A model generated the notes under the pieces. It ran no database searches. It saw only the letters and a program-made list of their open reading frames with translations, and was not told the DNA's origin. Made by a program: the position numbers and the translations under genes. Below, piece after piece: positions 13,535 through 32,167 of a DNA stretch of 64,000 bases; position 1 is the first letter of the stretch, and every line of letters begins with the position of its first letter. The stretch is from positions 159,154 through 223,153 of the forward strand of contig CAZWXQ010000003.1 of the NCBI GenBank assembly GCA_964637955.1, written 5' to 3'. Source of the stretch: an uncultured Gammaproteobacteria bacterium (lineage in GTDB: Bacteria > Patescibacteriota > Microgenomatia > Levybacterales > UBA12049).

Positions 13535-13741
13535 ATGATTGATATAAGTAAAACTAACTTCCTTACAGTTGCAGAGGTTTCAGCACTACTGCGATTAAGT
13601 GAGCTTACTATTTATAAATACCTTAAAGAAGGTAAGCTTGAAGCAGTCGAATTTGGCGGTCATTATCGCATTTCAGAATCTTCATTATTTAAATTTATTG
13701 AAAAGCATAAAGTAAATTCAGTTAAGGAGGAAAATGAATAA
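13535..13741 (+). CDS. Small helix-turn-helix DNA-binding protein (excisionase/MerR-like HTH_17 type)
   Basis: FLTVAEVSALLRLSELTIYKYLKEGKLEAVEFGGHYRI is the canonical helix-turn-helix of the excisionase-family DNA-binding domain. The track start at 13505 falls inside the predicted promoter, so I prefer the ATG at 13535. Its 3' end carries the AAGGAGG Shine-Dalgarno site of the next gene. Confidence 0.55.
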   Translation: MIDISKTNFLTVAEVSALLRLSELTIYKYLKEGKLEAVEFGGHYRISESSLFKFIEKHKVNSVKEENE

Positions 13742-16700
13742 CGAATCTACTGGGTTGAGTATTATCGTTCCTACATATAATGAAGAAGCTAATATTAAAT
13801 TATTAGTTGAAAGAATTCACGCTGCTTTATCTGATGCAAAAATAAATTATGAAATAATTTTTGTTGATGATCACTCTACAGACCAGACTCAAAATGTGAT
13901 CAGTAATCTAGCCATTTTTTTTCCAATCATTTCAACTACTAAGGTAGGCAAAAAAGGTAAAGCATATTCAATATTAGAAGGTGCTAAATTTGCTCAGTTT
14001 GATAATTTAGCCATGATTGACGCAGATCTTCAATATCCGCCAGAAGCTCTTCCGAAAATGGTAAACATGCTTAAGTATTCTGATTTGGTAATTTCAAATA
14101 GAAAAACATATAAAGATACAAAACTTAGAAAAGTTTTAAGTCGTACATTCAAGTTTATGTTTGGAAAGGTTTTATTTGGACTTAATTATGATATTCAATC
14201 AGGACTTAAAGTGTTTACAAGAGAAGTTTTTGAAACATTAAAGTATATGCCTTCATCTTCTTGGACATTTGATCTTGAGTTTTTACATAGGGCGAAACAG
14301 GCAGGATTTCATATGAGCAGCTATGATATTACTTTCACCAAAAGAGCAAAAGGAAATTCAAAAATGGGGATCATGAAGCAAGTTATAGAAATTGGATCTA
14401 ATGCAATAAGAGTCAAAGCAAAAAGAATTAGACCTGTTCATATTGCTCCAAAAAGTTTAGATTCTATGAAAGGTGCTGGAATAGGTTATAAAAAAAGAAA
14501 GTATATTACTCATACTACTATTCCACATCACTTATCAGCTTTAACTACCGTAACTAAATTACAAAAATTTATCGTAATTATGATTGTTGGAATTTTAATT
14601 GTTGGAATACTGACAACGCCGATGCTAACTTTAAAGTTGTTAATTGGAGTTCTAAGTTTTATATACCTGGCAGATGTATTATTTAATTTATTTTTAATTT
14701 CAAAAAGCTTAAATAGTCCTCAGGAAATTATATCTTCAAAAGATGAGATTGATTCAGTGAAGAATTCAGATTTGCCAATATATTCTATACTTTGTCCACT
14801 CTATAAAGAGGCTCAGATTATTCCGCAATTTTTAGAAGCTATTGAAAAAATTTCGTGGCCAAAAGATAAGCTTGATGTAATATTACTTTTGGAAGAAGAC
14901 GATAGGGTAACGATCGATGTTGCAGCAAGAATGGATTTACCTTCTTTTGTTAGAACAATTATTGTTCCACATTCAATTCCTAAAACAAAACCTAAGGCAT
15001 GTAACTATGGACTTGCATTTGCAAAAGGAGAGTATGTAGTTGTTTATGATGCAGAAGATATCCCAGATGTAGACCAATTAAAAAAAGCATTTCTTGGTTT
15101 TAAGAAAAGTTCAGAAAACGTAATATGTCTTCAAGCGAGACTTAATTATTACAATCCTCACCAGAATTTATTAACAAGATTTTTTACAGCAGAGTACTCA
15201 CTTTGGTTTGATGTAACGCTTCCTGGAATGGTGGCGATTGAAACTGCTTTGCCATTGGGTGGAACCAGTAATCATTTCAAAACAAAATACTTACAGTCTG
15301 TTCATGGATGGGATCCATTTAATGTGACTGAAGATGCCGATTTAGGAATCCGGCTTTTTAACCAAGGATATAAAACTGCAATGATTGATTCAACAACTCT
15401 TGAAGAAGCAAATAGTAATCTTAAAAATTGGTTTAGGCAAAGATCACGTTGGATAAAAGGGTATATGCAGACATATCTGGTGCATACGAGACGAAATGGT
15501 GTTTCAAGCAATAAGAAATCAAAACACTCTTTATATTTTCAATTAATAATTGGAGGAAAAATCGCTTTTGTTCTTATAAATCCTATTCTTTGGATTGCTA
15601 CATTTGCATATTTTGCACTTTATTCATATGTAGGGCCTAGTATAGAACAGCTATATCCCAATGTCATATTTTATATGGCTATATTTTCTCTCGTAGTTGG
15701 CAATTTCCTCTTCCTTTATTACTACATGATTGGACTTGCGAAGAAAGGACAATGGAGTCTTATTAAATATGTGTTATTAGTTCCTATTTATTGGTTAATG
15801 ATAAGTATTTCTGCATTCATCGCTTTGTATCAATTAATATTTAAACCTCACTACTGGGAAAAAACAGTTCATGGTTTACACTTGAAGAAAGATGAAGTTA
15901 AAGAAAAAGTAAACGTTGTGGAAGAGATCCCCGCATATGATGATATCTCAAAGAAAAGACTTAGATATATTAATATTAAGCAAATTGCTGCAGTTACTAT
16001 ATACTCATTAGGAATATTATTCATTTTTCAAGATAATATTTTATATGCTTCATTAGTTTTGTTAAGTTCATTCTTAATTTACGTCATCTATACTTTATTG
16101 TTTCCTCTTTTAGCAGATTTATTACGCTCTGTGTTTTCAAATTTAAGTGATTTACTTAGTATGTTTAAAAAATCAAATGAGGAAAGCAGTGGAATTAGGA
16201 TTTTAGTATTAAATTGGAGAGACAGTAAGCATAAATGGGCTGGTGGGGCAGAGGTATATGCACATGAGTTAGCTAAAAGATGGGTAAAGGATGGCAATAG
16301 TGTAACAATGTTTTCTGGAAATGATGGAAAGAATAAAAGTAATGAAACTATTGATGGCGTAAATATCATAAGGCATGGAGGTTTTTATACAGTCTATTTC
16401 TGGGCTTTTGCTTACTATGTAATTAAATTTCGCGGAAAATTTGACGTAATTATTGATACTGAGAATGGAATTCCATTCTTCTCGCCTTTATATTCTAGAA
16501 AGAAAAAATTTCTCTTGATTCACCATGTTCATCAGGAAGTATTTAGAAAAAGTTTAAGATGGCCATTTTCAGACCTAGCATTATTTTTAGAAGCAAAACT
16601 TATGCCGTTTGTTTATAGAAATGTTCAAGTAATCACAGTTTCTCCGTCATCAAAAAAAGAAATTTTAAAACATAAGCTGACTAAAAAAGATCCAATAGTC

Positions 16701-17345
16701 ATCTATAACGGTGTAAATCATGACATATTTAAGCCCGCTAAAAAAAGTCAAAAGCCAATGGTCATATATCTTGGTAGACTTCAGTACTATAAAAGTTTAC
16801 ATATTTTTATAGTAGCTGCAAAAAGAATACTTAAGAAAAATCCAAAAGTTCAGTTTGTTATCGCTGGCGAAGGTGAGGAAAAAAAGAAGCTAATGAATTT
16901 TGCTAAAAAATTGGAAATTTCTGATCAAGTTAATTTTTTAGGCAAAGTAACTGAAGAAGAAAAAGTAAAGATATTTCAAGAAGCATGGGTATTTGTTAAC
17001 CCTTCTTATATGGAGGGATGGGGAATTACTACGATTGAAGCAAACGCTTGTGGAGTCCCAGCTGTTGCTTCAAATGTAGCAGGATTAAAAGATGCTATTA
17101 AAAATAATGAAACGGGATTTTTGGTTGATTATAAAGACTATGACAGTTTCACAAAAAGTATATTAGCTTTAATCGATGATGAATCATTAAGAAAAAGAAT
17201 GTCAGAAAATGCATTAAATTGGTCAAAGAAATTTAGCTGGGATATTAGCGCTGAGTTGTTCCTTGAAGTTATTAAGATCTCATTACAAGAAGATGATTAC
17301 AAATCAGAATCTTATACAAATATATTTTTAATGCAAAAAAACTAA
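13734..17345 (+). CDS. Three-domain membrane glycosyltransferase: N-terminal DPM1/GtrB-like GT2, central processive GT2 synthase (PgaC/NodC/cellulose-synthase-like), C-terminal GT4
   Basis: Domain 1 (LSIIVPTYNEE..FVDDHSTDQT) is polyprenyl-phosphate sugar synthase-like. Domain 2 has YDAEDIPD, VTEDADLG (TED) and FRQRSRW (QxxRW) and is flanked by TM helices. Domain 3 (EGWGITTIEANACGVPAVAS..ETGFLV) has the GT4 E-x7-E signature. An AAGGAGG Shine-Dalgarno site lies 7 nt upstream. 1203 aa. Confidence 0.8.
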   Translation: MNNESTGLSIIVPTYNEEANIKLLVERIHAALSDAKINYEIIFVDDHSTDQTQNVISNLAIFFPIISTTKVGKKGKAYSILEGAKFAQFDNLAMIDADLQYPPEALPKMVNMLKYSDLVISNRKTYKDTKLRKVLSRTFKFMFGKVLFGLNYDIQSGLKVFTREVFETLKYMPSSSWTFDLEFLHRAKQAGFHMSSYDITFTKRAKGNSKMGIMKQVIEIGSNAIRVKAKRIRPVHIAPKSLDSMKGAGIGYKKRKYITHTTIPHHLSALTTVTKLQKFIVIMIVGILIVGILTTPMLTLKLLIGVLSFIYLADVLFNLFLISKSLNSPQEIISSKDEIDSVKNSDLPIYSILCPLYKEAQIIPQFLEAIEKISWPKDKLDVILLLEEDDRVTIDVAARMDLPSFVRTIIVPHSIPKTKPKACNYGLAFAKGEYVVVYDAEDIPDVDQLKKAFLGFKKSSENVICLQARLNYYNPHQNLLTRFFTAEYSLWFDVTLPGMVAIETALPLGGTSNHFKTKYLQSVHGWDPFNVTEDADLGIRLFNQGYKTAMIDSTTLEEANSNLKNWFRQRSRWIKGYMQTYLVHTRRNGVSSNKKSKHSLYFQLIIGGKIAFVLINPILWIATFAYFALYSYVGPSIEQLYPNVIFYMAIFSLVVGNFLFLYYYMIGLAKKGQWSLIKYVLLVPIYWLMISISAFIALYQLIFKPHYWEKTVHGLHLKKDEVKEKVNVVEEIPAYDDISKKRLRYINIKQIAAVTIYSLGILFIFQDNILYASLVLLSSFLIYVIYTLLFPLLADLLRSVFSNLSDLLSMFKKSNEESSGIRILVLNWRDSKHKWAGGAEVYAHELAKRWVKDGNSVTMFSGNDGKNKSNETIDGVNIIRHGGFYTVYFWAFAYYVIKFRGKFDVIIDTENGIPFFSPLYSRKKKFLLIHHVHQEVFRKSLRWPFSDLALFLEAKLMPFVYRNVQVITVSPSSKKEILKHKLTKKDPIVIYNGVNHDIFKPAKKSQKPMVIYLGRLQYYKSLHIFIVAAKRILKKNPKVQFVIAGEGEEKKKLMNFAKKLEISDQVNFLGKVTEEEKVKIFQEAWVFVNPSYMEGWGITTIEANACGVPAVASNVAGLKDAIKNNETGFLVDYKDYDSFTKSILALIDDESLRKRMSENALNWSKKFSWDISAELFLEVIKISLQEDDYKSESYTNIFLMQKN

Positions 17346-17346
17346 T

Positions 17347-18393
17347 ATGAAAAAAGAAAATTTAAAAAGTCATAAAAACAGTTTCAATCTACTTAACATT
17401 ATTATCTTAGAGTTTTTTGATTTACTAGTGAAAAGATTTGTAAAACCACAAAAGTTTAATGCACCAAAGGAGATAGGTAGTTATAAATTAAAATTTAAAT
17501 TTAAAAAACAATGGAAATCAGACACGGGTAAGCTAGGAATATATGAATCAATTGACGGTAAAAAAGCATTTGGAAAGACTGTTAATTATAAATATAAAAA
17601 CGCATCTTACATAAAGCTTAAAAATGAAATCGAAATTTATAAATTAATAGATAAAGTAATATCTAATTTAACAAAAAAAAATAAATCTAAATTTAATAGT
17701 TTTAGAATTCCAAAGTTCATTCATAGTAGTGAGTCTAAAAATTCGCTATCACTATTAGTCGAGTATGTGGAAGGAATTAGGGCGGATAATCTTTCTTCCG
17801 ATGATAAATTTAATCTTTATATAAAAAATATTGATTTTCTAGATAATCTTGGAAGCTCTATGTCCAATTCGCAAAAAAATACATTTTATAAAAGAACTTC
17901 GATTAATTATGTTTTACTTTATCCTTTATTATTGATTTTTGCTTTGATTAGAAATTTTGAATCAAGGAAAGAATTGCTAAGAGGAGCATTTATATTTATA
18001 AAGAATTTTAATCTTTTATTTTTGCAAAATAAATTAGTTTTAACTCATAGGGATCTTCATTTTAAAAACATAATAGTAAATGAGAAAGAAAATATATTAA
18101 TAGATTTTGAATCAGCAGTATTTACAGTTCCATATTATGATGTTGTTACAACTTTAAGATATGAATGGAATGATTTAGAATTTACTAAATTGCTAATTTC
18201 AACAATAGAGAAAGAAAATATATTAAATAATAAATTTGAAAATTATTTTAAATTATTGATGATAATCTCCTCTACCCATGGTTTGACTGCGAACAATTTT
18301 TCTAAAAAAGAAATTAATCAAATAAATAAGTTTTTGTCTTTCGGGCTTGCATATAAGTTTAATAAGACAAATATACAAGGAGCATTTTCATGA
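17347..18393 (+). CDS. Protein-kinase-like fold phosphotransferase (APH/choline-kinase family)
   Basis: LTHRDLHFKNIIVNEKENILIDFESA carries the catalytic-loop HxDxxxxN and the DFE metal-binding motif. 348 aa, inside the glycan gene array. Confidence 0.5.
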   Translation: MKKENLKSHKNSFNLLNIIILEFFDLLVKRFVKPQKFNAPKEIGSYKLKFKFKKQWKSDTGKLGIYESIDGKKAFGKTVNYKYKNASYIKLKNEIEIYKLIDKVISNLTKKNKSKFNSFRIPKFIHSSESKNSLSLLVEYVEGIRADNLSSDDKFNLYIKNIDFLDNLGSSMSNSQKNTFYKRTSINYVLLYPLLLIFALIRNFESRKELLRGAFIFIKNFNLLFLQNKLVLTHRDLHFKNIIVNEKENILIDFESAVFTVPYYDVVTTLRYEWNDLEFTKLLISTIEKENILNNKFENYFKLLMIISSTHGLTANNFSKKEINQINKFLSFGLAYKFNKTNIQGAFS

Positions 18394-19187
18394 TGAAGAA
18401 TCATTTTTTTACACTTAGAAAAATTTTATTTAGAATAACTTACCTAGTTTCTAAGTTAATTCCTGGGAAAAGCGTTTCTGTGCTTTGCTTTCACAGTATC
18501 TCAAAATCAAATGACAGATATTCTGTTTCGCCTGAGAAATTTAAAAAAGAGATTGAAATAATTTCTAAACATTCTGATTTCATAAGTTTTAAAGATTTTT
18601 TGGATAACAGAAACAAAAAAAAATCATCTGTAATAATTACATTTGATGATGGATACAAAGACATAATTGGAATAGTGCCAATTATTAAAAGATATAATAT
18701 TAAGCCGATACTATTTGTTTTATCAAATCATAGAAATGTTAATAGAATCGAAATTGAGAACGATAATAAATTATTAACTATTAAAGAAATTAGATATTTA
18801 GTAAAAAATGGTTTTGAAATTGGTTCTCACAGTGCAACTCATTCTAATTTGTCCAAAATTTCAGATAATGAATTAATTGAAGAAGTAATAAATAGCAGAA
18901 GGATTCTTCAAGAACAATTGCGAGTGGATATTAATTATTTTGCATATCCGAAAGGAATAAATAATAAAAAAATAGTCAATATCGTGAAGAAAGCAGGATA
19001 TAAATATGCTTTTACTGTTGAACCTGGAAATTTAAATGAAAAAAATGATAATTATAGACTTCCAAGAACAATTATAGATAAAACACATCAATTGTCTGAA
19101 TTTCCAGGAGTATATTCTAAAGGGACGTACATAATTAGGAAAAATACAAATAGATTTAAATTATGGGAGAGGTTTTTAAGTATATGA
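18390..19187 (+). CDS. CE4 polysaccharide deacetylase (NodB/PgaB/IcaB-like)
   Basis: ITFDDGYKD is the TFDDG motif 1 and GSHSATHSNL is the H-S-x-x-H motif of the NodB homology domain. It overlaps the upstream gene at an ATGA junction. Confidence 0.8.
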   Translation: MMKNHFFTLRKILFRITYLVSKLIPGKSVSVLCFHSISKSNDRYSVSPEKFKKEIEIISKHSDFISFKDFLDNRNKKKSSVIITFDDGYKDIIGIVPIIKRYNIKPILFVLSNHRNVNRIEIENDNKLLTIKEIRYLVKNGFEIGSHSATHSNLSKISDNELIEEVINSRRILQEQLRVDINYFAYPKGINNKKIVNIVKKAGYKYAFTVEPGNLNEKNDNYRLPRTIIDKTHQLSEFPGVYSKGTYIIRKNTNRFKLWERFLSI

Positions 19188-20095
19188 AAAAAATTAGCGT
19201 AACTGTCGGAATTCCGGCATACAATGAAGAAAAAAATATTGAAAATATATTAAATGATATTCTATTTCAGGATAAGAATTCATTTGTTCTTAAAAAAATA
19301 TATGTTTCATCTGATGGAAGTACGGATGAAACGAGTAAAATTGTTAAAAGATTTGTTAAAAAGTATGATTTTATAACTCTTTTAGATAATAAGGAAAAGT
19401 TGGGTAAATCAACAAGATTAAATGAGTTATATAAACTAAGCAATACAGATATTTATATTAATTTTGATGCAGATCAAAAGCTCGGAGATAAGTTTGTGAT
19501 AGAAGAAATAATTAAGAAATTTAATAAAAGTAAAGTAGGTGTAGTTGGGGCGTCATCTTTACCTATGAAGCCAAAGAAGTTTTTTGAAAAAATTGTAGTT
19601 GCTTGGATAAATGTGTGGATATCAGTAAGAGAAGATTATAAAAAAGGAAATACAATTCATAATCATTTGGGATGCGCTTCTGCAATGAGGAAAAATATTT
19701 ATAAAAATATTAATTTACCAAAAAATTTAATTGCTGATGAAGATTATATTTATTTTTCAGCAATGAAAATGGGATATGATTTTAGATTTGCAAAGAATGC
19801 AAGGGTATATTATAAAAGTGCTTCAAATATTAATGATTTTTTCATACAGCATTCAAGATTCTTAATGATTAAGGATATAGTTGCTGAGCATTTTGGTTCT
19901 TGGGTTTTAGATTATTATATAATCCCAAAAAAATATAAGATAAACAGTTTGCTGAAGAATTTAATTAGAAATCCAATTTATTTATCCTTTTCAATTGTTC
20001 TCCAAATGTTGTTAGTTATTTATAAAAAATTAAATAATGAAAATTATAATTCAGGTAAGTGGAAAGAAGTAAAAACATCTAAGGTCTTAATATGA
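19184..20095 (+). CDS. GT2 glycosyltransferase, tandem paralog 1 of 3
   Basis: GIPAYNEEKNIENIL..SSDGSTDET shows a GT-A fold with a DxD motif, with hydrophobic C-terminal helices. I chose the ATG at 19184; the track start at 19163 lies inside the upstream gene. Confidence 0.7.
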   Translation: MKKISVTVGIPAYNEEKNIENILNDILFQDKNSFVLKKIYVSSDGSTDETSKIVKRFVKKYDFITLLDNKEKLGKSTRLNELYKLSNTDIYINFDADQKLGDKFVIEEIIKKFNKSKVGVVGASSLPMKPKKFFEKIVVAWINVWISVREDYKKGNTIHNHLGCASAMRKNIYKNINLPKNLIADEDYIYFSAMKMGYDFRFAKNARVYYKSASNINDFFIQHSRFLMIKDIVAEHFGSWVLDYYIIPKKYKINSLLKNLIRNPIYLSFSIVLQMLLVIYKKLNNENYNSGKWKEVKTSKVLI

Positions 20096-20997
20096 AAAAC
20101 TATAAAACAATTACTGTGGGAATTCCTGCATACAATGAATCAAGAAATATTTCTTTCTTGCTTAGTGCTTTAAGCACACAAGTTATAAAAACTGGTATTT
20201 TAAAAGAGATAATTCTTATTTCTGATGGAAGCATCGATGAAACAGTTGCAACAGCAAAATCGGTTCATTTACCTTTTCTAAAAATAATTGAATACAAGCA
20301 TAGAGAAGGAAAAATGAAAAGACAAAATGAAATTGTTAAATTATCAGAATCTGATATTTTAGTGCTTTTAGATTCTGACACAATTCTTTTTGGAAATGAT
20401 TTTATTGAAAATTTAATTAATCCAATTGTTTTGGATGAAAATGTTGGATTGGTAGGTGCAAATATAAAAAGCTTAAGAGGTAAAAATTATATTCAAAGAT
20501 CATTAGCCTTAAGTCATGATTTTAAATGGAAAATGTATGAAAAAATTGATGAAGGAAATAATATTTATTTATGTCATGGAAGAGCGAGGGCATTTTCTAA
20601 AAAATTATATAAAAATATTAATTGGCCAGATGAATTTCCTGAAGATGCATACTCATATTTATGGAGCTTGAGGAATGGATTTAAATTTGCATACGCCAAG
20701 AAAGCGGTACTTTTATTTAAATCTCCAGATAATATCAATGATCATCTTAGGCAAAGTTTAAGATTTAAGACTGGAAAATATATTTATAATAAAGATTTCT
20801 CTAAAGAATTCTTAGAATCTGAATACCACATTCCTAAAAAGATTATGTTAGGTTCTATATTTTTACAATTCATAAAACATCCGATTGATATGTCAATTTA
20901 TTTACTGATAATGGTTTATATAAAAATATTTAAATCAGATACAAAAGTAGATAATAATAGATGGGAGATTTCAGAATCTACAAAGGAAATCAATTAA
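20092..20997 (+). CDS. GT2 glycosyltransferase, tandem paralog 2 of 3
   Basis: GIPAYNESRNISFLL..ISDGSIDET has the same architecture as paralog 1. It joins the upstream gene at an ATGA overlap. Confidence 0.7.
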   Translation: MKNYKTITVGIPAYNESRNISFLLSALSTQVIKTGILKEIILISDGSIDETVATAKSVHLPFLKIIEYKHREGKMKRQNEIVKLSESDILVLLDSDTILFGNDFIENLINPIVLDENVGLVGANIKSLRGKNYIQRSLALSHDFKWKMYEKIDEGNNIYLCHGRARAFSKKLYKNINWPDEFPEDAYSYLWSLRNGFKFAYAKKAVLLFKSPDNINDHLRQSLRFKTGKYIYNKDFSKEFLESEYHIPKKIMLGSIFLQFIKHPIDMSIYLLIMVYIKIFKSDTKVDNNRWEISESTKEIN

Positions 20998-21927
20998 ATG
21001 AAAAATAATAATAAATTTAAAATAGTAAACGTAGATGTTGTCGTCAGTGCTTTTAACGAAGAGCAAAACATTTCAAACTTAATTCATTCAGTATTAAAGC
21101 AAAATGAAAATGGATATAGATTAAAAAACTTAGTGATATTTTCTGATGGCTCTACGGATAATACTGTAAGAGTAATTAAGAAAATTTATGATCATAGGAT
21201 TAAAATCTTTTCTTTCAAGGATAGAAAAGGAAAATCAAGCAGATTAAATAAATATTATAAAAATTCTAATTCAGACATTTTAGTTCAAATTGATGCAGAT
21301 GTTATTTTATCTCATAAAAATGTTTTAACAGATATTGTAAGGCCAATTATTAAAAATAAAAATGTTGGAATGTGTGGGGGAAACGCTCTTCCGATGAAAG
21401 GTAAAACATTTACAGAGAAGGCGGTTAATTATACTAACCAAGCATATCAGCCTATTAAGGACAATCAAAAAAATAAAGATAATGTTTACTCAGTAAGTGG
21501 AGCGATCATGGCCTTTAGAAAAGAACTTGTAAGTATAATTAATTTGCCAGAAAATGTGATAGCAGAAGATGTTTATATTTATTTTTTATGTTTAACTAAC
21601 AAATTTCTTTATAGATATGTTCCATCTGCAGTAGTTAATTATAGATCACCGTCAAATTTAAGGGATCAGATCAAGCAGAATACAAGATTTTTAATGTCTG
21701 AAACAAAAATGAGCATGTATTTCTCAAAAGATTTAGTTGAACGCGAATCTTATTTTCCCAAGAAAATATTGGTAATTCAAATGTTAAAAATTTTCATAAA
21801 ACATCCATTTCATTGTATATATATATTTATAGTTAATAGATATTGTCAGTTGAGAGCAGAGAAGTTAGTATTAGAAATGAAGGCTGATTGGCAAATTGCT
21901 GGGAGTACTAAGAAAGGATTTGCTTAA
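20998..21927 (+). CDS. GT2 glycosyltransferase, tandem paralog 3 of 3
   Basis: VVVSAFNEEQNISNLI..FSDGSTDNT. It shares the C-terminal RFLM motif with paralog 1. Confidence 0.7.
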   Translation: MKNNNKFKIVNVDVVVSAFNEEQNISNLIHSVLKQNENGYRLKNLVIFSDGSTDNTVRVIKKIYDHRIKIFSFKDRKGKSSRLNKYYKNSNSDILVQIDADVILSHKNVLTDIVRPIIKNKNVGMCGGNALPMKGKTFTEKAVNYTNQAYQPIKDNQKNKDNVYSVSGAIMAFRKELVSIINLPENVIAEDVYIYFLCLTNKFLYRYVPSAVVNYRSPSNLRDQIKQNTRFLMSETKMSMYFSKDLVERESYFPKKILVIQMLKIFIKHPFHCIYIFIVNRYCQLRAEKLVLEMKADWQIAGSTKKGFA

Positions 21928-25134: not shown

Positions 25135-26108
25135 TGAAAAAAATATACTTAATTATAACGGGTATTCTTTTTGTAATTTTTGTAAGTTTATTTTTTACTT
25201 TCAAGTCTAAAGAAACCTCCCCATACTCTAATTGGAATTTTCAATCGATTGATACTATGAAATATTCTAGAGACTTAGCTAGAGAGAAATTAAATGATCC
25301 ATTGTTTGATAAAGTCATAAATGATCAAGTTAAAGCTATTTCTGACACAGGTGCGACTCATATCGCTATAGCTACTCCATATGACGAAGAATTTTACCCA
25401 ATATTAAAAAGATGGGTAATTGCAGCAAGAAAAAATAACTTAAAAGTATGGTTTAGAGGTAATTGGGCTGGATGGGAGGGATGGTTTGACTATCCTAAGA
25501 TTAATAGGCAAGAACATTTAGAAAAGTCACAAGAATTTATTCTTAAGCATAAAGATTTGTTTGAAGATGGAGATGTATTTACGGCCTGTCCTGAGTGTGA
25601 GAATGGTGGCCCTGGAGACCCTAGGCAAACTGGAGATATAAAAGGACATAGGATGTTTTTAATAGAAGAATACGAAATGACAAAGTCAGCATTTAAAAAA
25701 ATAAATAAGAATATAATTTCAAACTATGACTCTATGAATGCTGATGTAGCCAAAGCAGTAATGGATAAAAATACTACAATTGCTCTAGACGGAGTAGTGA
25801 CGATTGATCATTATGTGGCTACTCCAGAAAAGATGATTGATGATATTAAATTTATCTCTAAAAATAGTGGCGGTAAGATAGTTTTGGGTGAAATCGGAGC
25901 GCCAATTCCGGATATTAATGGTAATTTAAATGAAGCACAGCAGGCTGATTGGATAAACAAATCATTTACTTTACTTAAAATGTCTCCAGATGTTATAGGA
26001 GTAAATTATTGGACAAATGTGGGTGGATCAACTTCTCTTTGGCATGTAGATGGCTCAGAAAAGCCAGCAGTAGGGATTATTAAATCATTTTATAAGCCTC
26101 AAAGATAA
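25134..26108 (+). CDS. Membrane-anchored extracytoplasmic protein, possible TIM-barrel glycoside hydrolase
   Basis: N-terminal signal anchor, then a soluble domain with acidic motifs (CPECENGG, GEIGAPIPD) reminiscent of GH5/GH113-type hydrolases. The assignment is weak. Confidence 0.25.
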   Translation: MKKIYLIITGILFVIFVSLFFTFKSKETSPYSNWNFQSIDTMKYSRDLAREKLNDPLFDKVINDQVKAISDTGATHIAIATPYDEEFYPILKRWVIAARKNNLKVWFRGNWAGWEGWFDYPKINRQEHLEKSQEFILKHKDLFEDGDVFTACPECENGGPGDPRQTGDIKGHRMFLIEEYEMTKSAFKKINKNIISNYDSMNADVAKAVMDKNTTIALDGVVTIDHYVATPEKMIDDIKFISKNSGGKIVLGEIGAPIPDINGNLNEAQQADWINKSFTLLKMSPDVIGVNYWTNVGGSTSLWHVDGSEKPAVGIIKSFYKPQR

Positions 26109-26123
26109 CTCTAGGACTAACTA

Positions 26124-26151
26124 TTGACAATTTATAAATTTCTGATATAAT
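26124..26151 (+). promoter_or_regulatory. Sigma70-like promoter with an extended -10: TTGACA (26124-26129), 16-nt spacer, TGaTATAAT (26143-26151)
   Basis: Consensus -35 and consensus -10 with an upstream TG, located 45 nt upstream of the sortase-substrate ATG. Confidence 0.5.
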
Positions 26152-26166
26152 CCTATAACAATTTTT

Positions 26167-26195
26167 AATGAAGCTTTTTAGCTTCATTTTTTATT
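26167..26195 (+). terminator. Intrinsic-terminator-like hairpin in the 5' leader: 8-bp stem AATGAAGC/GCTTCATT, 6-nt loop, then TTTTTATT; it ends 1 nt before the ATG at 26196
   Basis: The arms at 26167-26174 and 26181-26188 are perfect reverse complements, followed by a U-tract. The element lies between the predicted promoter and the start codon. Confidence 0.5.
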
Positions 26196-26795
26196 ATGAA
26201 AAGCAAGAATTTATTCGTTATAGTATTAAGTATAGTATTAATGTTATCGGCTTATGTGCCGAGCGCTTTGGCAGCAAACGAACCTTCATTTCCAACTTGT
26301 GTAAATCCACAAGGTCAGGTAAAGGCTTCATATGAATCAGGTAGTCACGGGGTAGTAGGTGACCCAAAAACATATTCAGGTAAAGATACAGTATATTCAC
26401 TTAATGGCGGAAATCAGACACAATGTTTGTGTCCCGTAAATGGAAGTGGAATCCAGACCAATTGGATGAAAGCTTCAAATTTAAGTGAAAATGAAATTAG
26501 CATTTTTGTTAATCAAGGCTGGATACTAGTAGCAGATGGAAGTGCTTGGGGCCTTGATCAAGGGACGTATTTAGCAAAAAACATAAGTTATTCATGCTCA
26601 TCCAATCAGGGCGGAACAAGCTCTAGTAGTTCTTCATCAAATTCAAATGATAGTAAAAATGCAGGTGCTTCAGCTACTAACAGTATATTTAGCTTAGCAA
26701 ATACAGGAAATATTGTATTTATTGCTTCAGTTTTCATTTTAGGATTTTTCTTACTTATTGCTGGATTTGCCACTTCACAAAAAAGAAAAGAGTAA
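26196..26795 (+). CDS. Small secreted surface protein with an LAxTG-type cell-wall sorting signal (sortase substrate)
   Basis: N-terminal signal peptide (LSAYVPSALAANE), a Cys-containing domain, and a Ser-rich stretch (GGTSSSSSSSNSNDS). Then LANTG, a hydrophobic helix (NIVFIASVFILGFFLLIAGFA) and a basic tail (SQKRKE), which together form a tripartite sorting signal. Confidence 0.75.
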   Translation: MKSKNLFVIVLSIVLMLSAYVPSALAANEPSFPTCVNPQGQVKASYESGSHGVVGDPKTYSGKDTVYSLNGGNQTQCLCPVNGSGIQTNWMKASNLSENEISIFVNQGWILVADGSAWGLDQGTYLAKNISYSCSSNQGGTSSSSSSSNSNDSKNAGASATNSIFSLANTGNIVFIASVFILGFFLLIAGFATSQKRKE

Positions 26796-26799
26796 TCAA

Positions 26800-27330
26800 A
26801 TGAATCTTTTTTCAAAGCTGCTCGCTGCTTCGGGAATACTTCTTTTAATATTTGGATTTTATTTAGTAAATTTAAGATTTAGTCCGAAAAAAATTGCCTT
26901 CTCAGATGTAAAGGTTGAAGAAAAAAAGCAAACAAATGTTGCTCCAGCGAGGATAATTATCCCTAGTTTAAAAATCGATAGTAAAATCGTTCCTGCAATA
27001 ATTACAAATAACAAATGGGAAGTCACAAATGAAGGAGTTTCATATTTATCTTCTTCGCCTATTCCTGGAGATCAAGGCAATAGCATTCTTTATGGTCATA
27101 ACTGGAGTAGTATACTCGGAAATCTTACAAAGATTAAGCCAGGGGAGAAACTAATTATAGTAATGAATGACGGTGATGTTAGGGAGTTTGTTGTTAATTA
27201 CACTATGATAGTCTCTCCAACTCAAACCAACATATTAGATCAAAGTAAAGACAATAGGCTTACTATTTATACATGTGCTGGATTTCTAGATTCAAAGAGA
27301 TTTGTAGCCACAGCGCTGCTTGTTAAGTAA
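26800..27330 (+). CDS. Sortase (class E-like transpeptidase)
   Basis: N-terminal TM anchor, catalytic His in LYGHNWSS, the TLxTC-type active site RLTIYTCAG, and a downstream Arg (KRFVATA). The ATG at 26800 is 5 nt after the substrate stop; the track start at 26758 would overlap the substrate. Confidence 0.8.
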   Translation: MNLFSKLLAASGILLLIFGFYLVNLRFSPKKIAFSDVKVEEKKQTNVAPARIIIPSLKIDSKIVPAIITNNKWEVTNEGVSYLSSSPIPGDQGNSILYGHNWSSILGNLTKIKPGEKLIIVMNDGDVREFVVNYTMIVSPTQTNILDQSKDNRLTIYTCAGFLDSKRFVATALLVK

Positions 27331-27360
27331 TTTCCTCAGTAGATTAATTTTAAAAAAGCA

Positions 27361-27400
27361 AAAAGGTCTACTTTTTGGGCAGACCTCTTTGTTTATTTTG
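27361..27400. terminator. Bidirectional intrinsic terminator between the converging sortase and minus-strand GT-C genes
   Basis: AGGTCT (27364-27369) pairs with AGACCT (27381-27386), followed by CTTTGTTTATTTTG. The complement strand also reads hairpin plus T-tract. Confidence 0.55.
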
Positions 27401-27558
27401 ATTTTCTTACCTTGTGAGTAAGTCCATCCCCTGTAATGTCCCTCAAAAGAACTAGTATCTTTATTGGCAAGTCTAGCTAATGCATTAGTTAGGCATAATT
27501 AGAATAATACGTTTTTTATAGGTTTGTCAAGTTTTAAGCCTGGCTTGTAATATCAAAT

Positions 27559-29160
27559 TTAATTAGGTGGTAAATTAGAATTCTTGTAGATATTTGTATA
27601 TTTTCCCCTAAGAACTAATTTGAAATTTTTTGAGAAATCGGGATTATTTTCTTTTACTAACTTTGTGTAGACTTCATCTCCGACATCTCCATTTGCCATA
27701 ATTATCCATTTAATATCTTTTGATGGCGTAGTAAGAGCGCGATTCCAGTAGTCACCTGTGCCCTCATGTACAAATCTTTTCAAATGCACTCCACTCGAGA
27801 AAGCCAAAGCATTATTGAATGCAATCGATGTCAGAATAAGTCCATCTTCATTATCTGCTGCACTTCTTATCCATCCACTTGCATCTCCCACTTGAAGGGA
27901 GCTAGTTCCAATTACACCGTCAGTTATTGTTACTACATCATTTCTAGCATAGAAAAATATGGACTGAATTATTATCAGCGAAAATAGCAGCATTTGAAGG
28001 ACTTTTTCTCTTGCCCAGTAAGCAGAAAAAACAGCAATTGCTGGCGCTACCATTAGTCCATATCTGACATTAAACCAGGATGTTTTTGCTTCTTCTGTCA
28101 CTTTAACTCCTAATTCCGGAGTAACTAAGATTGAATTCCCTATGTACAACGAAATAATATGAAAGGCAATTGGTGTAAGTAGAGTTAATACCGCGACAGT
28201 TAGGGGAGTAAGTTTGTTTCTGAATAAGAATAATAATAAGCCGATAATGGAAGAGATCATTAAGAAAGAACCAATATTATCAAGCATTGAAGACCAATAT
28301 GCTTGAATAGAAAGCGTTAGATTTTTATAAGTTAGTAATGATCCCGCTTCTTGAATACGCGCTTGTTGTGCATGTGCAGAATATGGGCCAAGCGCAAAGT
28401 AAAATGGATCATTAAAGATAAGCAGATTCCATATAATCCAAAGGAAAATTCCAAATCCACCAACAGTTAAAAATAGCAATAATCTTGCTTCAAGAATACG
28501 TAATCCTTGAGAAGCAGAAGAAGCGCTTATTTTTAATTTACCCTCCTGTTTGTAGTAAAGAAGAGTGATTATTACTATGGAAGGGGCCATGCATATAAAT
28601 AAAAACCATGCATCATATCGCGTTAAAGTTGCAAAAAATACCATCATTGCTGATAAGACTAAGTAGATAATGTTATATTTTTCCTTCACCCATTTAACCA
28701 GAAAATAAGAAGTTCCTGTAAAAAACATAAGAAGCGTAAGCTCTGTCATTGGAGTCGCTTGCATGTATAAAACGTTTGGATTTAAAAGAAATACAAGAGA
28801 ACCGAGAATTGAAGCGCCAATCCTTCTAGTTAGTTGAAATACTAACCCATATATAAATAGCGAGCATATTACATACGAGACCATTGATGCTATGCTGCCT
28901 GCAAATCCTGTTTGCCAAAGAGTATGATTCCAAACAAATGGAAGCATGAGTACATGGTTTAAGGGTAGCCAGACGCTACCTATTTGGGCGAGTCCAGGAT
29001 TAAGGTTATCAAATACAAGACGAGCCATATTTAGATGAGCTCTCGAGTCGTTGTACGCAACAATTACGTCTTTATATGAATAATAAAAAAAGCTCGTCAA
29101 GCTTAATGAGATAGATAAAATAATTATCAGATAAAGTCCATTTCTATAATTAAGCCTCAT
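27559..29160 (-). CDS. Polytopic membrane protein, family B' (paralog of 23494-25134)
   Basis: YNDSRAHLNMARLV, GSVWLPLNHVLMLP and the C-terminal KRFVHEGTGDYWN are shared with the plus-strand paralog. 533 aa. Confidence 0.4.
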   Translation of the reverse strand: MRLNYRNGLYLIIILSISLSLTSFFYYSYKDVIVAYNDSRAHLNMARLVFDNLNPGLAQIGSVWLPLNHVLMLPFVWNHTLWQTGFAGSIASMVSYVICSLFIYGLVFQLTRRIGASILGSLVFLLNPNVLYMQATPMTELTLLMFFTGTSYFLVKWVKEKYNIIYLVLSAMMVFFATLTRYDAWFLFICMAPSIVIITLLYYKQEGKLKISASSASQGLRILEARLLLFLTVGGFGIFLWIIWNLLIFNDPFYFALGPYSAHAQQARIQEAGSLLTYKNLTLSIQAYWSSMLDNIGSFLMISSIIGLLLFLFRNKLTPLTVAVLTLLTPIAFHIISLYIGNSILVTPELGVKVTEEAKTSWFNVRYGLMVAPAIAVFSAYWAREKVLQMLLFSLIIIQSIFFYARNDVVTITDGVIGTSSLQVGDASGWIRSAADNEDGLILTSIAFNNALAFSSGVHLKRFVHEGTGDYWNRALTTPSKDIKWIIMANGDVGDEVYTKLVKENNPDFSKNFKLVLRGKYTNIYKNSNLPPN

Positions 29161-30589
29161 TTATTGTTTCCTTTCTTAAAAATAAATAAGTCGAAAATAA
29201 AAATGAAAGACTTAGAAATCCGATAATTAAAACTAGATAGATGTATGGGTTAACAATATTTATTAAATAATTTTTATAGAAAAATGAATTTGGAGCGACT
29301 GTTTCGAGTTGCTTAATCGCATAAACAGGTGAATACCATATTCCGATGTATCCTTCACAAGGACAGGGAAGTAAGGTTCCTGTGAATGCTCCGATAGAGT
29401 TAATAATTATTCCCCAAATAACTGTAATACAGAAAATAAATTCAGCTAATAGTTTTCGAGACGAGTACTTTAAGAAATAAAGTAGAGGCAAGATAAGTAT
29501 AGGAATAGATGCTATTAGATATCTTGGGCCATAGCTCCATCCACCCCAATAATCTTGCCAAATAGAATAAAAAATAATATTTAAAGAAACAATAGAAAGT
29601 AAAGCGATTGAGAGATGCTTATCTCTTTTATATAGATTAAAAAAACCAAAAATTGCTAGAAGTAAGACAGGAGAAAAAATTAATATCCCTCTTTCAGGGC
29701 TTAGCGTTTGTGAAATTAAGCCTGGAAAAAGTCTCCTGTCATCAAATACTCCTTCTGCATTCCAGACCTTTATGGGAATTATGCTAGCCTTAAATCTTGA
29801 TCCTACTGATGAGCCGGAAGATTGGCCAATCTTGAATGGTGAGCCAAATGTGCTTTTATTATATAAAGATATCGCTGATCCAAATACTAGTAGTGGAATT
29901 AATAATAAAAAAATTCCGGAAAACATTTTTTTCTTTGAAGATTTAAAAAGTGAAACTATTATTAATAAAAATAAGGGGAATATGATAATTGCATTTGGAT
30001 AATCAATGGAAATTGAAAGAGCATAAAACAAGCCAAAAAATAAAATCGAAATTAACTTTTTCTTATTATAGAAAATTAGAAAAGATATTAAGCATAAAGT
30101 AATAAATAAAATTGAAAAAATGTGCGACCAGAATCCACCTGCAAATGAATAAATTAAAGTCGATACTCCAAATGAAATGCTTACAATAAATGAAGGTCCA
30201 GCAGAGAAATCTCCAAGTCTTCCTATGATGTAGAATAAGCTTATTGTAAGTGCAGCTATGATTGATATAATTCCAAACTCGAAAATGTACGGTATTTGGG
30301 TTGAGAATTTAAGTGCTATTTTATGAAAAGGAGTCATCATAAAAGACATACCTGCAGGGAACCTGCTGTAATAATGTCCATTTTTAAGACTTAGATCTGG
30401 AGCGGAAAAATCTTTATATTTATCAATACTTAATTTTTTATCTTCTACAATTGCTCGAGTTAATGCATATCTGCCTCTTTCTACTGAAGATACGAAGTTA
30501 TTGCGAATGCTGAGGATATATACAAAAGACATAAATATAAAAATAAATATGAAATATGCTATGTCTTTGGTGTGTTTGTTTTTTATCAT
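29150..30589 (-). CDS. GT-C-like polytopic membrane glycosyltransferase, family A' (paralog of 21948-23501)
   Basis: ERGRYALTRAIVE, IDYPNA and WQDYWGGWSYGPRYL are shared with the plus-strand paralog. 479 aa. Confidence 0.5.
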   Translation of the reverse strand: MIKNKHTKDIAYFIFIFIFMSFVYILSIRNNFVSSVERGRYALTRAIVEDKKLSIDKYKDFSAPDLSLKNGHYYSRFPAGMSFMMTPFHKIALKFSTQIPYIFEFGIISIIAALTISLFYIIGRLGDFSAGPSFIVSISFGVSTLIYSFAGGFWSHIFSILFITLCLISFLIFYNKKKLISILFFGLFYALSISIDYPNAIIIFPLFLLIIVSLFKSSKKKMFSGIFLLLIPLLVFGSAISLYNKSTFGSPFKIGQSSGSSVGSRFKASIIPIKVWNAEGVFDDRRLFPGLISQTLSPERGILIFSPVLLLAIFGFFNLYKRDKHLSIALLSIVSLNIIFYSIWQDYWGGWSYGPRYLIASIPILILPLLYFLKYSSRKLLAEFIFCITVIWGIIINSIGAFTGTLLPCPCEGYIGIWYSPVYAIKQLETVAPNSFFYKNYLINIVNPYIYLVLIIGFLSLSFLFSTYLFLRKETINEA

Positions 30590-30595
30590 TAATTA

Positions 30596-32167
30596 CTATG
30601 TATAAATTCTCTGGTCAACAAGATTATTGCCAATATTTTTTTCCGATTGAGCAAGAGAATTGTCATTTTTTAAGTGAAGTCCGTGTTTTGTTTTAGCCCA
30701 GTGATGAGGACGAACTATGGTTTCATATACAGATTTCCAGGCTGCAATACTAATTGCCAACCAATATAGCGGAACAATGAAGGCATACTTGCAAAGATCG
30801 TAGTATCGTCTTTTATAACATCCAAGCATGTAGTAGACAATTTGAACAAAGTTTCCAAAGACTAATGTAAATACTGCTGGATATAGAAGGGGAGCTGGAT
30901 AAAATCCTTCAATCGTAGGCCCGATTTGATTTCTAAAAACAAAATATGACACAGTTATGATCCACATAATAGGATTAATAAGCATAGAAAGGACCTTTGT
31001 CCCTAAAATGACTTGAAAAGTTAAAATATGAGGATTTTTCCATGTGGTAATAAAATCAGAAGGATTTCTCATATGAACTATGTAGGTTTGGATGTAGCCC
31101 TTAATCCAACGAGTTCTTTGCTGAAGCCAATTTGCTACATCGCTATTTGCTTCTTCTAAGGTAACACTTTCCAGAATCCCTGTTCTGTATCCTCGTTTAA
31201 ATAGCCGCATTCCCAAATCGGCATCCTCAGTAACATTAAAAGGATCCCAACCGCCTAGATTACTTAAGTCTTTGGTTCTGAAGTGATTTGATGTTCCGCC
31301 TAGAGGAATTGGAGCTTGAATAGATTGGAGACCTGTTAGGATTAAATCAAACCATAGTGAGTACTCTGCCGTGAATACTCGAGTAAGAATATTTTGGTGA
31401 GGATTATAGAAATTTAGCTTAGCTTGAAGACAAATTATGTTCGGATTAATTTTAGAAAAAGCTGCGACTGACTTCTTTAGCTGAAGAGGATCTGGAACAT
31501 CTTCGGCATCATAGATTACGCAATATTCACCCCTTGCTCTAGGTAGGGCATAGTTCATGGCTTTTGGCTTTGTTTTAGGAAGTGAGTTTGGAACCGTAAC
31601 GATTTCAAAAAAATTTGGCAATGACATTTTACCTATTTGAGTAATAGTTTCAATATCATCATCTTCTAGGATTAATAAAATCTGGAGTTTTTCCTTAGGA
31701 TAATTAAGACGCGTCATAGCTGAAATGAATTGACCTAAGACAGCTCCCTCTTTATATACAGGACAAAGCACAGTATAGACTGGTAAGTTTTCATCAATCT
31801 GTTTTATTTCTTCAGGGGAAATTTTTATAATCCCCTTTTTTACAAAACTTCTGCAGATAAGGAAAAAATTAAACAAAAGATCTAAGAAATAAATTATTGT
31901 AATAATTATTACAAGAATCTGAGCAGTATATCTCCAGTTAAGTATAAGAAAAAAAGTAAGTATCGAAAAAAAGAGAAGTAGAAATATTTTTTGAGCTTTT
32001 GAAAATAAAAAATTAGCACTTTCATTCTTTCTCATGGTTGAGATTTGAATGTGGTTTTTTATTTTATTGGGGAACTTAAATTCTTTAAGAATCTCATCAG
32101 AAGAAACCCATCTCAGGGCAGAGTTATTTTTAGTCTTCTTATGTTTTTTGTGATTATCTTCTTCCAT
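30596..32167 (-). CDS. Processive GT2 synthase (PgaC/IcaA/NodC/cellulose-synthase-like), stand-alone paralog of the central domain of the 1203-aa protein
   Basis: YDAEDVPD, VTEDADLG (TED) and LQQRTRW (QxxRW) are present, with N- and C-terminal TM helices. It is collinear with residues about 340-740 of the 13734-17345 protein. 523 aa. Confidence 0.8.
   Translation of the reverse strand: MEEDNHKKHKKTKNNSALRWVSSDEILKEFKFPNKIKNHIQISTMRKNESANFLFSKAQKIFLLLFFSILTFFLILNWRYTAQILVIIITIIYFLDLLFNFFLICRSFVKKGIIKISPEEIKQIDENLPVYTVLCPVYKEGAVLGQFISAMTRLNYPKEKLQILLILEDDDIETITQIGKMSLPNFFEIVTVPNSLPKTKPKAMNYALPRARGEYCVIYDAEDVPDPLQLKKSVAAFSKINPNIICLQAKLNFYNPHQNILTRVFTAEYSLWFDLILTGLQSIQAPIPLGGTSNHFRTKDLSNLGGWDPFNVTEDADLGMRLFKRGYRTGILESVTLEEANSDVANWLQQRTRWIKGYIQTYIVHMRNPSDFITTWKNPHILTFQVILGTKVLSMLINPIMWIITVSYFVFRNQIGPTIEGFYPAPLLYPAVFTLVFGNFVQIVYYMLGCYKRRYYDLCKYAFIVPLYWLAISIAAWKSVYETIVRPHHWAKTKHGLHLKNDNSLAQSEKNIGNNLVDQRIYT

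Follow-up and report, generated by a model that had tools for sequence, protein, structure and literature searches.

Two anciently diverged synthase/GT-C modules converge on a sortase and its substrate in a Microgenomatia genome

Why should a bacterial locus carry twice, on opposite strands, the same series of three genes for putative sugar-transferring membrane proteins, with a sortase and its substrate in between, and do the two sets serve one purpose or two? The question is raised by a stretch of 64,000 nucleotides (nt) from an uncultured bacterium of the Levybacterales (Patescibacteriota, Microgenomatia, UBA12049; assembly GCA_964637955.1, contig CAZWXQ010000003.1, positions 159,154 to 223,153), which we call the window and number from its first letter. 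Microgenomates and other candidate-phyla bacteria are uncultivated, and their envelope chemistry is essentially uncharted. Sortases are near-ubiquitous in the Microgenomates, and many of the protein families enriched in them are hypothetical membrane proteins (PMC6744442). We propose, with a probability of roughly 0.5, that the window holds two anciently diverged paralogous glycan modules, which probably feed one surface glycoconjugate system. Two paralogous glycan modules within one locus are not in themselves surprising, and the wider value of the case lies in the conserved, fusion-linked locus that associates a synthase, glycosyltransferases (GT) of the C fold (GT-C) and a sortase.

Module I lies on the plus strand and begins with a fusion protein of 1203 amino acids (aa; 13734..17345), in which a GtrB-like family 2 glycosyltransferase (GT2), a BcsA/PgaC-like membrane synthase (SYN) and a GT4 domain follow each other. 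After a variable accessory region of five genes (17347..21927), it continues with A (21948..23501, 517 aa), a polytopic membrane protein of GT-C fold, and B (23494..25134, 546 aa), a GT-C-fold membrane protein with a C-terminal soluble domain. Then come X324 (25134..26108), a 324-aa protein with an N-terminal membrane anchor that is conserved 3′ of B, SUB (26196..26795), a secreted 199-aa sortase substrate, and the sortase (26800..27330, 176 aa when read from its ATG). Module II faces them from the minus strand, and consists of a stand-alone BcsA/PgaC-like membrane GT2 synthase, SYN′ (30596..32167, 523 aa), a paralog of A, A′ (29150..30589, 479 aa), and a GT-C-fold paralog of B, B′ (27559..29160, 533 aa), which overlaps A′ by 11 nt. 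All these open reading frames (ORFs) sit exactly where the initial annotation of the sequence had placed them. The order SYN, A, B is identical on both strands, and the two arrays converge, with the sortase and SUB between them, on a 228-nt spacer (27331..27558) that separates the stop codons of the sortase and of B′. The plus-strand module is non-contiguous, as the five accessory genes intervene between the SYN fusion and A, and X324 is additionally placed between B and SUB.

The members of each pair had initially been taken for homologs after short motifs were noticed in both, and full-length BLASTP comparisons bear this out. SYN (aa 253-720 of the fusion protein) and SYN′ are identical at 233 of 469 positions (50%, E=1e-159), A and A′ at 131 of 437 (30%, E=1e-47), and B and B′ at 200 of 510 (39%, E=3e-121). 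All motifs quoted at the time are found: QRSRW/QRTRW and TED in the synthases, ERGR[FY]AL, [IL]DYPNA and W.D.WGGW in the A pair, and YND.R.HL, GSVWLPL.HVLMLP and KRF.HEGTG.YW in the B pair. The similarity is far above chance, extends well past these motifs and is collinear over nearly the full length of the proteins. By pairwise alignment, A and A′ thus form one family and so do B and B′, neither pair being made of unrelated proteins. A self-comparison of the window DNA returns two short inverted matches only, one of 131 nt at 73% identity and one of 90 nt at 74%, both covering the most conserved coding motifs, which speaks for an old divergence. Paralogy between A and B themselves was also considered and rejected, as their BLASTP comparison is not significant and hhalign gives a probability of 6%.

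The mirror-like layout, the same gene order and the similar GC content of the two arrays could mean that the module was copied and inverted in place, within the lineage of this very genome, and diverged rapidly afterwards. We give next to no credence to this scenario, which is contradicted by the relatives of module II found in other genomes (loci are numbered L, and single proteins P). Locus L006 holds a three-gene unit in the order of module II, made of a SYN of 495 aa, an A of 475 aa and a B fused to a GH5 domain (868 aa). SYN′, A′ and B′ are 57, 51 and 61% identical to the products of this unit, compared to 50, 30 and 39% for their partners inside the window. Trees were built by neighbour-joining (NJ) with 200 bootstraps, not by maximum likelihood. 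The type-II clade was recovered in 200/200 replicates for SYN and in 200/200 for B, and the grouping with the L006 genes in 200/200 for A′, 200/200 for B′ and 118/200 for SYN′. B′ is nested in a clade of GH5-fused proteins, and B belongs to an unfused, type-I clade. From the L006 identities and the bootstraps, we conclude that the three genes evolved as a unit, and that the split between types I and II predates the divergence of the lineages. Of the duplication first proposed, what stands is an ancient paralogy at the level of the module, with a deep type I/II split; the local inverted origin does not, since the minus-strand genes group with those of other genomes. In annotation, module types I and II should be kept apart, as distinct orthologous groups that separated long ago.

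The loci closest to the window point in the same direction. The nearest one, L089, has the same plus-strand cluster (identities of 89% for the synthase, 87% for A, 91% for B, 90% for SUB and 82% for the sortase) and no module II; tblastx similarity to it runs over 27349-27536 and stops just before the stop codon of B′ at 27559. In L090, whose B is 80% identical, a type-II SYN follows the sortase on the same strand. L091 is the mirror image of the window, with SYN, A and a B-GH5 fusion facing sortase, SUB, X324, B and A, and its two modules are about equally far from those of the window (B 60% and A 50% identity; B′ 61%, A′ 47% and SYN′ 58%). Both the lack of module II in L089 and the presence of the same layout in L091 argue against a copy made locally. 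L092 is laid out as L091, and because their SUB linkers are identical the two are probably one lineage. In L007, two type-II arrays converge on the sortase and SUB. The convergent layout therefore recurs in two or three other lineages, with frequent absence, and is no accident of this genome. Its frequency among type-II modules rests on few loci, because a metagenome scan with the B′-clade alignment gave mostly type-I loci, only L092-L094 being closer to B′. Either vertical inheritance with loss or lateral transfer could account for this pattern. A tRNA scan and Rfam gave no match, hence no obvious mobility marker beside module II.

Is module II still functional, or is it a decaying remnant, with a truncated B′, of a module already lost by the closest relative? 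The closest relatives of B′ (44-61% identity) are mostly proteins of 840-900 aa, in which the B domain is followed by GH5 (PF00150/PF26410). B′ lacks this domain, common in its clade, and a tblastn search of the window with the GH5 domains of P0243 and P0245 revealed no remnant of it (best E=0.035, elsewhere). Together with the absence of module II from L089, this is what a remnant would look like. Against it, the three ORFs are intact and tightly packed, A′ retains all 37 invariant columns of the A-family alignment, B′ every invariant column of the B-family alignment, and SYN′ all catalytic motifs. Moreover, an unfused ortholog 77% identical to B′, P0242 (529 aa), likewise has no GH5, so that the short form is maintained in two genomes or more. 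We regard decay as very improbable, if slightly less so than a local duplication. The subfunctionalisation of two equal copies that was first put forward is nevertheless too simple a description: module II is devoid of GtrB-like, GT4 and hydrolase domains, and would consequently need these functions in trans.

What do the individual proteins look like? The three domains of the 1203-aa protein are a GtrB/DPM1/ArnC-like GT2 (aa 1-235, nt 13734-14438), SYN (nt 14490-15893) and GT4 (aa ~815-1185, nt 16176-17288), all on the plus strand. Pfam finds Glycos_transf_2 at residues 9-168, a generic match above threshold, Glyco_tranf_2_3 at 350-576 and Glycos_transf_1 at 997-1162. The N-terminal ~230 aa are matched below cutoff by the NCBIfam models PgfS (4.1e-20, 72 bits for a cutoff of 500), ArnC (7e-19, 68 bits for 529) and AglJ (58 bits for 325). 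For the plus-strand SYN, the best NCBIfam model is PgaC_IcaA (aa 334-704, 4.7e-30, below cutoff), and for SYN′ matches below cutoff are found with TIGR03111 (3.3e-14) and NF053846 (3.1e-11). The equivalog cutoffs of the BcsA/PgaC families are not reached in NCBIfam (85 bits versus 699 for CelA, 105 and 58 bits versus 422 for PgaC_IcaA). Pfam finds no PilZ domain in the synthases, and no match to the partner families BcsB and PgaD among the window ORFs scanned. Both SYN and SYN′ carry DAED, TED, QRSRW or QRTRW, and KPKAxN (KPKACN in SYN, KPKAMN in SYN′), the Pfam models Glyco_trans_2_3 and Glyco_tranf_2_3 match above threshold (both of them in SYN′), and a hydropathy scan places in either copy 2 hydrophobic segments before the GT domain and ~3-4 after it. 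The best PDB sequence matches of SYN′ are BcsA chains (8e-14). SYN′, without the GtrB-like and GT4 domains, is the equivalent of the central domain of the fusion alone; the complete GtrB-like+SYN+GT4 fusion is present in many related loci.

For A and B, folds were predicted with AlphaFold2 from alignments of 42 and 43 homologs, respectively. The A model has a predicted local distance difference test (pLDDT) of 88.5 and a predicted template modelling score (pTM) of 0.90, and the B model values of 81.1 and 0.81. In Foldseek searches of the PDB, the significant matches of both were exclusively GT-C enzymes, with a probability of 1.00: at the top ArnT 5ezm (1.3e-5), AglB, Pmt4, ALG12, AftB and Emb for A, and ALG12 9s6t (4e-6), STT3, DPY19, ArnT, AftA and ALG9 for B. 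The GT-C label given to these proteins at the outset is thus justified at the level of the fold. From their 30% and 39% full-length identity, A′ and B′ probably share it. The first loop of A contains S51, G55, R56, E65 and D82, which are invariant in the family, and the nearly invariant E53; A′ retains E53, E65 and D82. In B, Y59-N60-D61 is invariant and lies 9 residues after the first transmembrane (TM) helix, the corresponding YND of B′ being residues 36-38. The conserved acidic residues of these loops would be catalytic, judging from the alignments, and A and B are presumably active transferases. Their donors would be lipid-linked sugars, on polyprenyl phosphate or diphosphate: the operon of A and B also encodes a GtrB-like domain, and in 3 family representatives such a domain is joined directly to B. 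As for known families, 3 of 43 B-family members (best E=0.0002) and 1 of 42 A-family members (a weak Mannosyl_trans4 match) touch GT-C Pfam models, and some type-II fusion proteins reach PMT_2 (PF13231; P0247, 32.6 bits versus 26.1). Pfam scans of the window proteins and of family members show that A and B are not YfhO-family proteins. The sole curated sequence model touched by A (52.1 bits, 4.5e-14), A′ (31.6 bits, 7.5e-8) and B (27.1 bits, 1.8e-6) is NCBIfam NF047440, whose cutoff is 200 bits; B′ has no match to it.

SUB is composed of a signal peptide, a Cys-containing domain of ~110 aa, a Ser-rich linker with poly-Ser, LANTG, a hydrophobic helix and a KRKE tail. An LAxTG motif followed by a TM segment and a basic tail was found in 55 of 59 syntenic SUB homologs. 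Ser and Thr together make up 27.6% of the linkers on average, compared to a background of 12.6%, with 42% in the SUB of the window and at least 20% in 58 of 77 homologs. Two-module loci are at the high end (0.42-0.50); a specially Ser-rich linker was not retained as a hallmark of such loci, given a similar value, 0.38, in the single-module relative L089. That SUB is the acceptor or the tether of a glycan is plausible. The sortase is recognised by Pfam PF04203 (E=1.9e-19, 70 bits versus 26.6) and displays GHN with the His, IYTC with the Cys, and further downstream an Arg. It is assigned to no class, as every NCBIfam model of a sortase class scores below cutoff. Read mechanically, its ORF starts with a TTG at 26758 and overlaps SUB by 38 nt. 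As the orthologs in L089 and L090 are 176 aa long, the true start is probably the ATG at 26800. A promoter-like site (26124-26151, TTGACA-16-TATAAT, 12/12, with an extended TG) lies 45 nt 5′ of the SUB start, and another one upstream of SYN′ (32275-32246, minus strand), both being consensus matches only; a terminator-like hairpin is seen in the convergence spacer (27391-27359, minus strand). Since the counts of such sites in the window are not above shuffled expectation, they are only suggestions; the one before SUB hints at a separate, possibly strong transcription of SUB and the sortase.

X324 has a single hydrophobic segment, at its N-terminus. In 4 family representatives X324 is fused to the C-terminus of B, the position occupied by GH5 in others. 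Kinship with GH5 was examined and not adopted: BLASTP against a B-GH5 fusion gave no match, and hhalign aligns X324 only weakly with the domain (probability 3.8%, E=0.011, 218 columns). Sequence and profile searches of the PDB returned nothing relevant, and PF11790 is weakly matched by 4 of 21 X324 members (best E=0.0036). X324 is named here as a possible clan GH-A-like hydrolase.

How general is the arrangement? With hidden Markov models (HMMs) built from the window and its relatives, we mapped 80 B-type loci from species-representative genomes; the number of loci counted varies with the feature (80, 73, 55, 58 or 39). The recurring order is the GtrB-like+SYN+GT4 fusion, variable GT and sugar-modifying genes, A, B, X324, SUB and sortase. 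A immediately precedes B in 79/80 loci, B is followed by X324 in 66/73 and by SUB and the sortase in 39/55, and SYN lies within 10 kb upstream in 35/58. A minus-strand A, B or SYN downstream was found in 0/55 informative type-I loci. A and B homologs are abundant in Patescibacteria (Levybacteria, Daviesbacteria, Gottesmanbacteria, Woesebacteria and Amesbacteria are among the source names), and an exhaustive profile search (E<=1e-30) yields 983 clusters at 50% identity for the B family. Many assembly records with this Patescibacteria-type cluster (L009-L088) are titled ‘uncultured Gammaproteobacteria’, ‘Pseudomonadales’, ‘Bdellovibrionales’ or ‘Eisenbacteria’, probably placeholder or wrong labels.

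Gene fusions are the strongest functional signal that the parts cooperate. We looked at 145 further representatives of the B family. Thirteen of them join B to SYN (2 with a GtrB-like domain as well), 3 to a GtrB-like domain without SYN (1 with GH5 as well), 9 to GH5, 4, as said above, to X324, and 1 to A. Single-ORF A+B proteins of ~1080 aa are also present in L068, L070 and L084. SYN and B form single polypeptides of 1,086-1,511 aa in P0395, P0503, P0438, P0465, P0477, P0486, P0496 and P0500, two of which have a GtrB-like N-terminus. We know of no description of a polypeptide that unites a BcsA-like synthase with the GT-C domain B. In L124, L155, L160 and L162, a GtrB-like+SYN gene is followed by B in a two-gene unit without A, SUB or sortase nearby. 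The existence of these A-less units suggests that SYN and B are the core, and A an addition. Taken with the near-constant adjacency of A and B and the frequent presence of X324, SUB and sortase behind them, the fusions argue for one multi-enzyme machine.

These counts also bear on a different explanation, in which the genes make a secondary cell-wall polymer or an exopolysaccharide, SUB and the sortase are merely co-located or co-regulated, and the two modules produce two independent polymers. SUB and the sortase are missing from 16 of the 55 loci that have room for them, as well as from the two-gene units just described, and SUB has its own strong promoter-like site; synthase-dependent systems such as Bcs and Pga usually pair the synthase with a periplasmic hydrolase. 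Yet the order A, B, X324, SUB, sortase is kept across lineages up to 40% different in B, and type-II modules converge on SUB and the sortase in the window, L007, L091 and L092. Co-location without a shared function is, in our view, rather unlikely.

We return to two modules serving one glycoconjugate system. On the homologies, folds, motifs, synteny, fusions and phylogeny described so far the following scheme can be built, in which the donors, the products, the acceptor and the transferase activity of A and B are what we infer. On the cytoplasmic side of the membrane, polyprenyl phosphate would receive a sugar from the GtrB-like domain of the 1203-aa protein. The fused BcsA/PgaC-like synthase would polymerise and translocate a glycan backbone, for which priming or tailoring may come from GT4 and from the products of the variable GT2, CE4 and kinase genes. 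At the outer face, A and B would work as a pair beside the synthase, drawing on lipid-linked sugars to lengthen or branch the glycan as it emerges, to modify the Ser/Thr-rich stalk of SUB, or both. X324, or the GH5 domain in type-II relatives, would trim or transfer the glycan, and the dedicated sortase would anchor SUB to the wall through LAxTG. Module II, as a second lineage of the same three-gene unit, would most likely provide a different glycan or linkage, and would rely on donors and processing in trans, the candidate sources being the module I fusion and an Arn-like set (45571-51295). In the latter, a 232-aa GtrB/ArnC-like GT2 on the minus strand is accompanied by a GT4, an Acyl_transf_3 protein, a formyltransferase, a DegT aminotransferase and a GFO-type oxidoreductase. 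Its product could be a modified amino sugar linked to a lipid, which might serve module II as a donor. The speculative idea of two different glycans placed on one shared acceptor, already expressed in the initial annotation, is compatible with the data.

Another possibility is protein O-glycosylation only, as in the Pgf system of Streptococcus mutans, where the GtrB-type PgfS and the GT-C proteins PgfM1/M2 are encoded beside the sortase-anchored adhesins that they glycosylate (PMC12041528). The GtrB-like domain would then make a polyprenyl-phosphate monosaccharide, A and B (or A′ and B′) would transfer the sugar to Ser/Thr of the SUB stalk, and the ‘synthases’ would make lipid-linked donors or primers, no free polymer being exported. 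The composition of the cluster parallels Pgf (a GtrB-type GT2, two GT-C proteins, a sortase-anchored substrate), PgfS is among the models matched by the N-terminus of the fusion, and the SUB linker is enriched in Ser and Thr, most of all in two-module loci. Fusions of B to a GtrB-like domain and to SYN both exist, the GT2 being placed directly on the N-terminal side of B, as expected if either GT2 supplies the donor. But the SYN domains possess the full D, DxD, TED and QRxRW set, with predicted flanking TM bundles typical of synthases that translocate a polymer, and the fusion of GH5 or X324 to B suggests a polysaccharide substrate. In addition, A and B are not of the YfhO family, certain SUB linkers are nearly free of Ser and Thr, and 16 of 55 loci are without SUB and sortase nearby. 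Glycosylation of SUB alone appears rather unlikely, to the same degree as a plain wall polymer.

Several observations weigh against the scheme of two modules feeding one system. The Ser and Thr content of SUB linkers spans 5-50%, with 11 of 77 below 15%, and SUB and the sortase are missing from the 16 loci mentioned. L089 does without module II, which means that this module is dispensable. A, A′, B and B′ are without a Pfam match, and sequence and profile searches of the PDB found no solved relative; the Foldseek TM-scores of A and B are modest (0.45-0.53), and the assignment of X324 as a hydrolase, drawn from weak profile matches, is not confident. The named enzyme families are matched far below their curated cutoffs (PgaC 105 versus 422 bits, CelA 85 versus 699, ArnC 68 versus 529, NF047440 52 versus 200). 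Of the window ORFs that were scanned, none matches the GtrA flippase family; a MATE/Polysacc_synt-type protein is encoded at 12088-13341, on the minus strand. Our proposal is drawn from sequence, fold models and synteny.

The accessory genes between the SYN fusion and A, all on the plus strand and assigned by Pfam, encode an APH-like kinase (17347-18393), a CE4 polysaccharide deacetylase (18390-19187) and three paralogous GT2 proteins of ~300 aa (19163-20095, 20092-20997 and 20998-21927). CE4 is present in 16 of the 39 type-I loci with full flanks, and the APH-like kinase in 13. The middle region of L089, the closest relative, is wholly different (3525-8479, with a GT4, an aminotransferase-GT2 fusion and a large CE4 protein), between flanks that are 87-91% identical. 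The interval from SYN to A looks like a hot spot for glycan diversification.

Around the glycan locus, other features of the window were recorded. Directly 5′ of it lies a division and wall cluster (251-9957) with a Mur ligase, a MurA-like gene of the EPSP_synthase family, an NTP transferase, MraY, FtsW, MurG, FtsA and FtsZ; in L007, a Mur ligase, a MurA-like gene and an NTP transferase are likewise directly upstream of the synthase. This wall setting counts in favour of the glycoconjugate system proposed above. Three further large polytopic membrane proteins are encoded at 10531-12084, 51335-53107 (minus strand) and 53387-55021, of which one matches PMT_2, one PTPS_related (PF10131) and one no family. 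By HMMs, they fall outside the A and B families, which brings the density of candidate GT-C-like proteins in the window to an unusually high level. Right after module II, at 32345-37233, an AcrB-type RND transporter is encoded together with an HlyD-like adaptor, and no outer-membrane factor was seen; the pair is an odd one for the Gram-positive-like envelope that is expected. Finally, 30 of 32 bins of 2 kb have a positive GC skew, and the plus strand carries nearly all genes. Module II, one of the few blocks on the minus strand, is where the skew reaches its minimum. An unusual strand compositional disparity has reportedly been described for one Microgenomates genome, going by the title of the paper.

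What would it mean if the synthase and the GT-C proteins form one machine? The gene set, present in hundreds of genomes, combines the GtrB-like+SYN+GT4 fusion, two GT-C families that have no curated model, a hydrolase-like partner, and an LAxTG protein with its sortase, and several independent gene fusions tie these parts to each other. If the parts do work together, this would be a new route to branched or protein-linked surface glycans, and SUB and its glycan would become targets for labelling, enrichment and host-interaction studies. We searched the literature without finding an account either of this cluster or of a BcsA-like synthase coupled to GT-C proteins. One may go further and imagine an undescribed pathway, in which a BcsA-like synthase is physically coupled to GT-C enzymes, both being one polypeptide in some lineages, and the glycan is branched or extended outside the membrane from lipid-linked donors and then attached to a small sortase-anchored protein. 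The result would be a bacterial ‘proteoglycan’, a major envelope polymer of Microgenomates, with modules I and II giving two glycan chemistries on one anchor. We hold this extended version to be quite unlikely, and offer it as a speculation.

How does the locus compare with known systems? The exosortase-associated GT2 families (TIGR03111 for XrtG, NF053846 for XrtP) also tie a membrane GT2 synthase genomically to a protein-sorting transpeptidase; unlike them, the window has a classical sortase with LAxTG instead of an exosortase with PEP-CTERM, and it matches their models below cutoff. NF047440 (LA_3751/LA_3752, Leptospira), which A, A′ and B touch so far below its cutoff, is itself an uncharacterised family, built, to judge by the name of the model, on two consecutively numbered Leptospira loci.

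The assembly of mycobacterial arabinogalactan and lipoarabinomannan combines a GT2-made backbone with GT-C enzymes that add polyprenyl-phosphate sugars on the outer face, and includes a pair of such enzymes, EmbA-EmbB (Pmt1-Pmt2 is another pair). The logic of assembly is alike, and Emb, AftA/B and Pmt are among the fold matches of A and B. In contrast, there is no relationship at the sequence level, and A and B are not detectably paralogous. Moreover, the backbone enzyme would be a membrane-channel synthase in the window and is a cytosolic polymerase acting on a lipid-linked primer in mycobacteria, and attachment to the wall would use a sortase, not a LytR-CpsA-Psr (LCP) ligase. The BcsA and PgaC/IcaA systems are close to SYN through D, DxD, TED and Q(R/Q)xRW with predicted TM helices on both sides, BcsA being its best solved relative. 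PgaB and BcsZ accompany their synthases as deacetylase and hydrolase partners, and a CE4 deacetylase and a possibly hydrolase-like extracytoplasmic partner accompany the synthase in the window. The locus differs from these systems by scores far below the equivalog cutoffs, by the absence of PilZ, BcsB and PgaD, and by its partners, which have the GT-C fold and in some cases form one protein with the synthase.

Of the systems described so far, the locus comes closest in its logic to Pgf of S. mutans and, more widely, to the three-component GtrB/GT-C glycosylation systems of Gram-positives, such as GtrB-PgtC2 and CsbB-YfhO (PMC12041528, PMC5856776). The differences are several. The A and B proteins of the window lie outside the YfhO family and reach no curated family of GT-C enzymes. 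One protein unites the GtrB-like domain with a BcsA/PgaC-like synthase and a GT4, the unit contains X324, possibly hydrolase-like, or a GH5, and a GtrA-type flippase is lacking among the window ORFs scanned. The substrate is one small LAxTG protein, whereas those of Pgf are large LPXTG adhesins. The likeness lies in the association, within one cluster, of a GtrB-type GT2 that would make a polyprenyl-phosphate sugar, two GT-C-fold proteins that would act outside the membrane, and sortase-anchored substrates with Ser/Thr-rich regions. The synthase/GT-C/sortase locus is an uncharacterised variant of known glycosylation logic.

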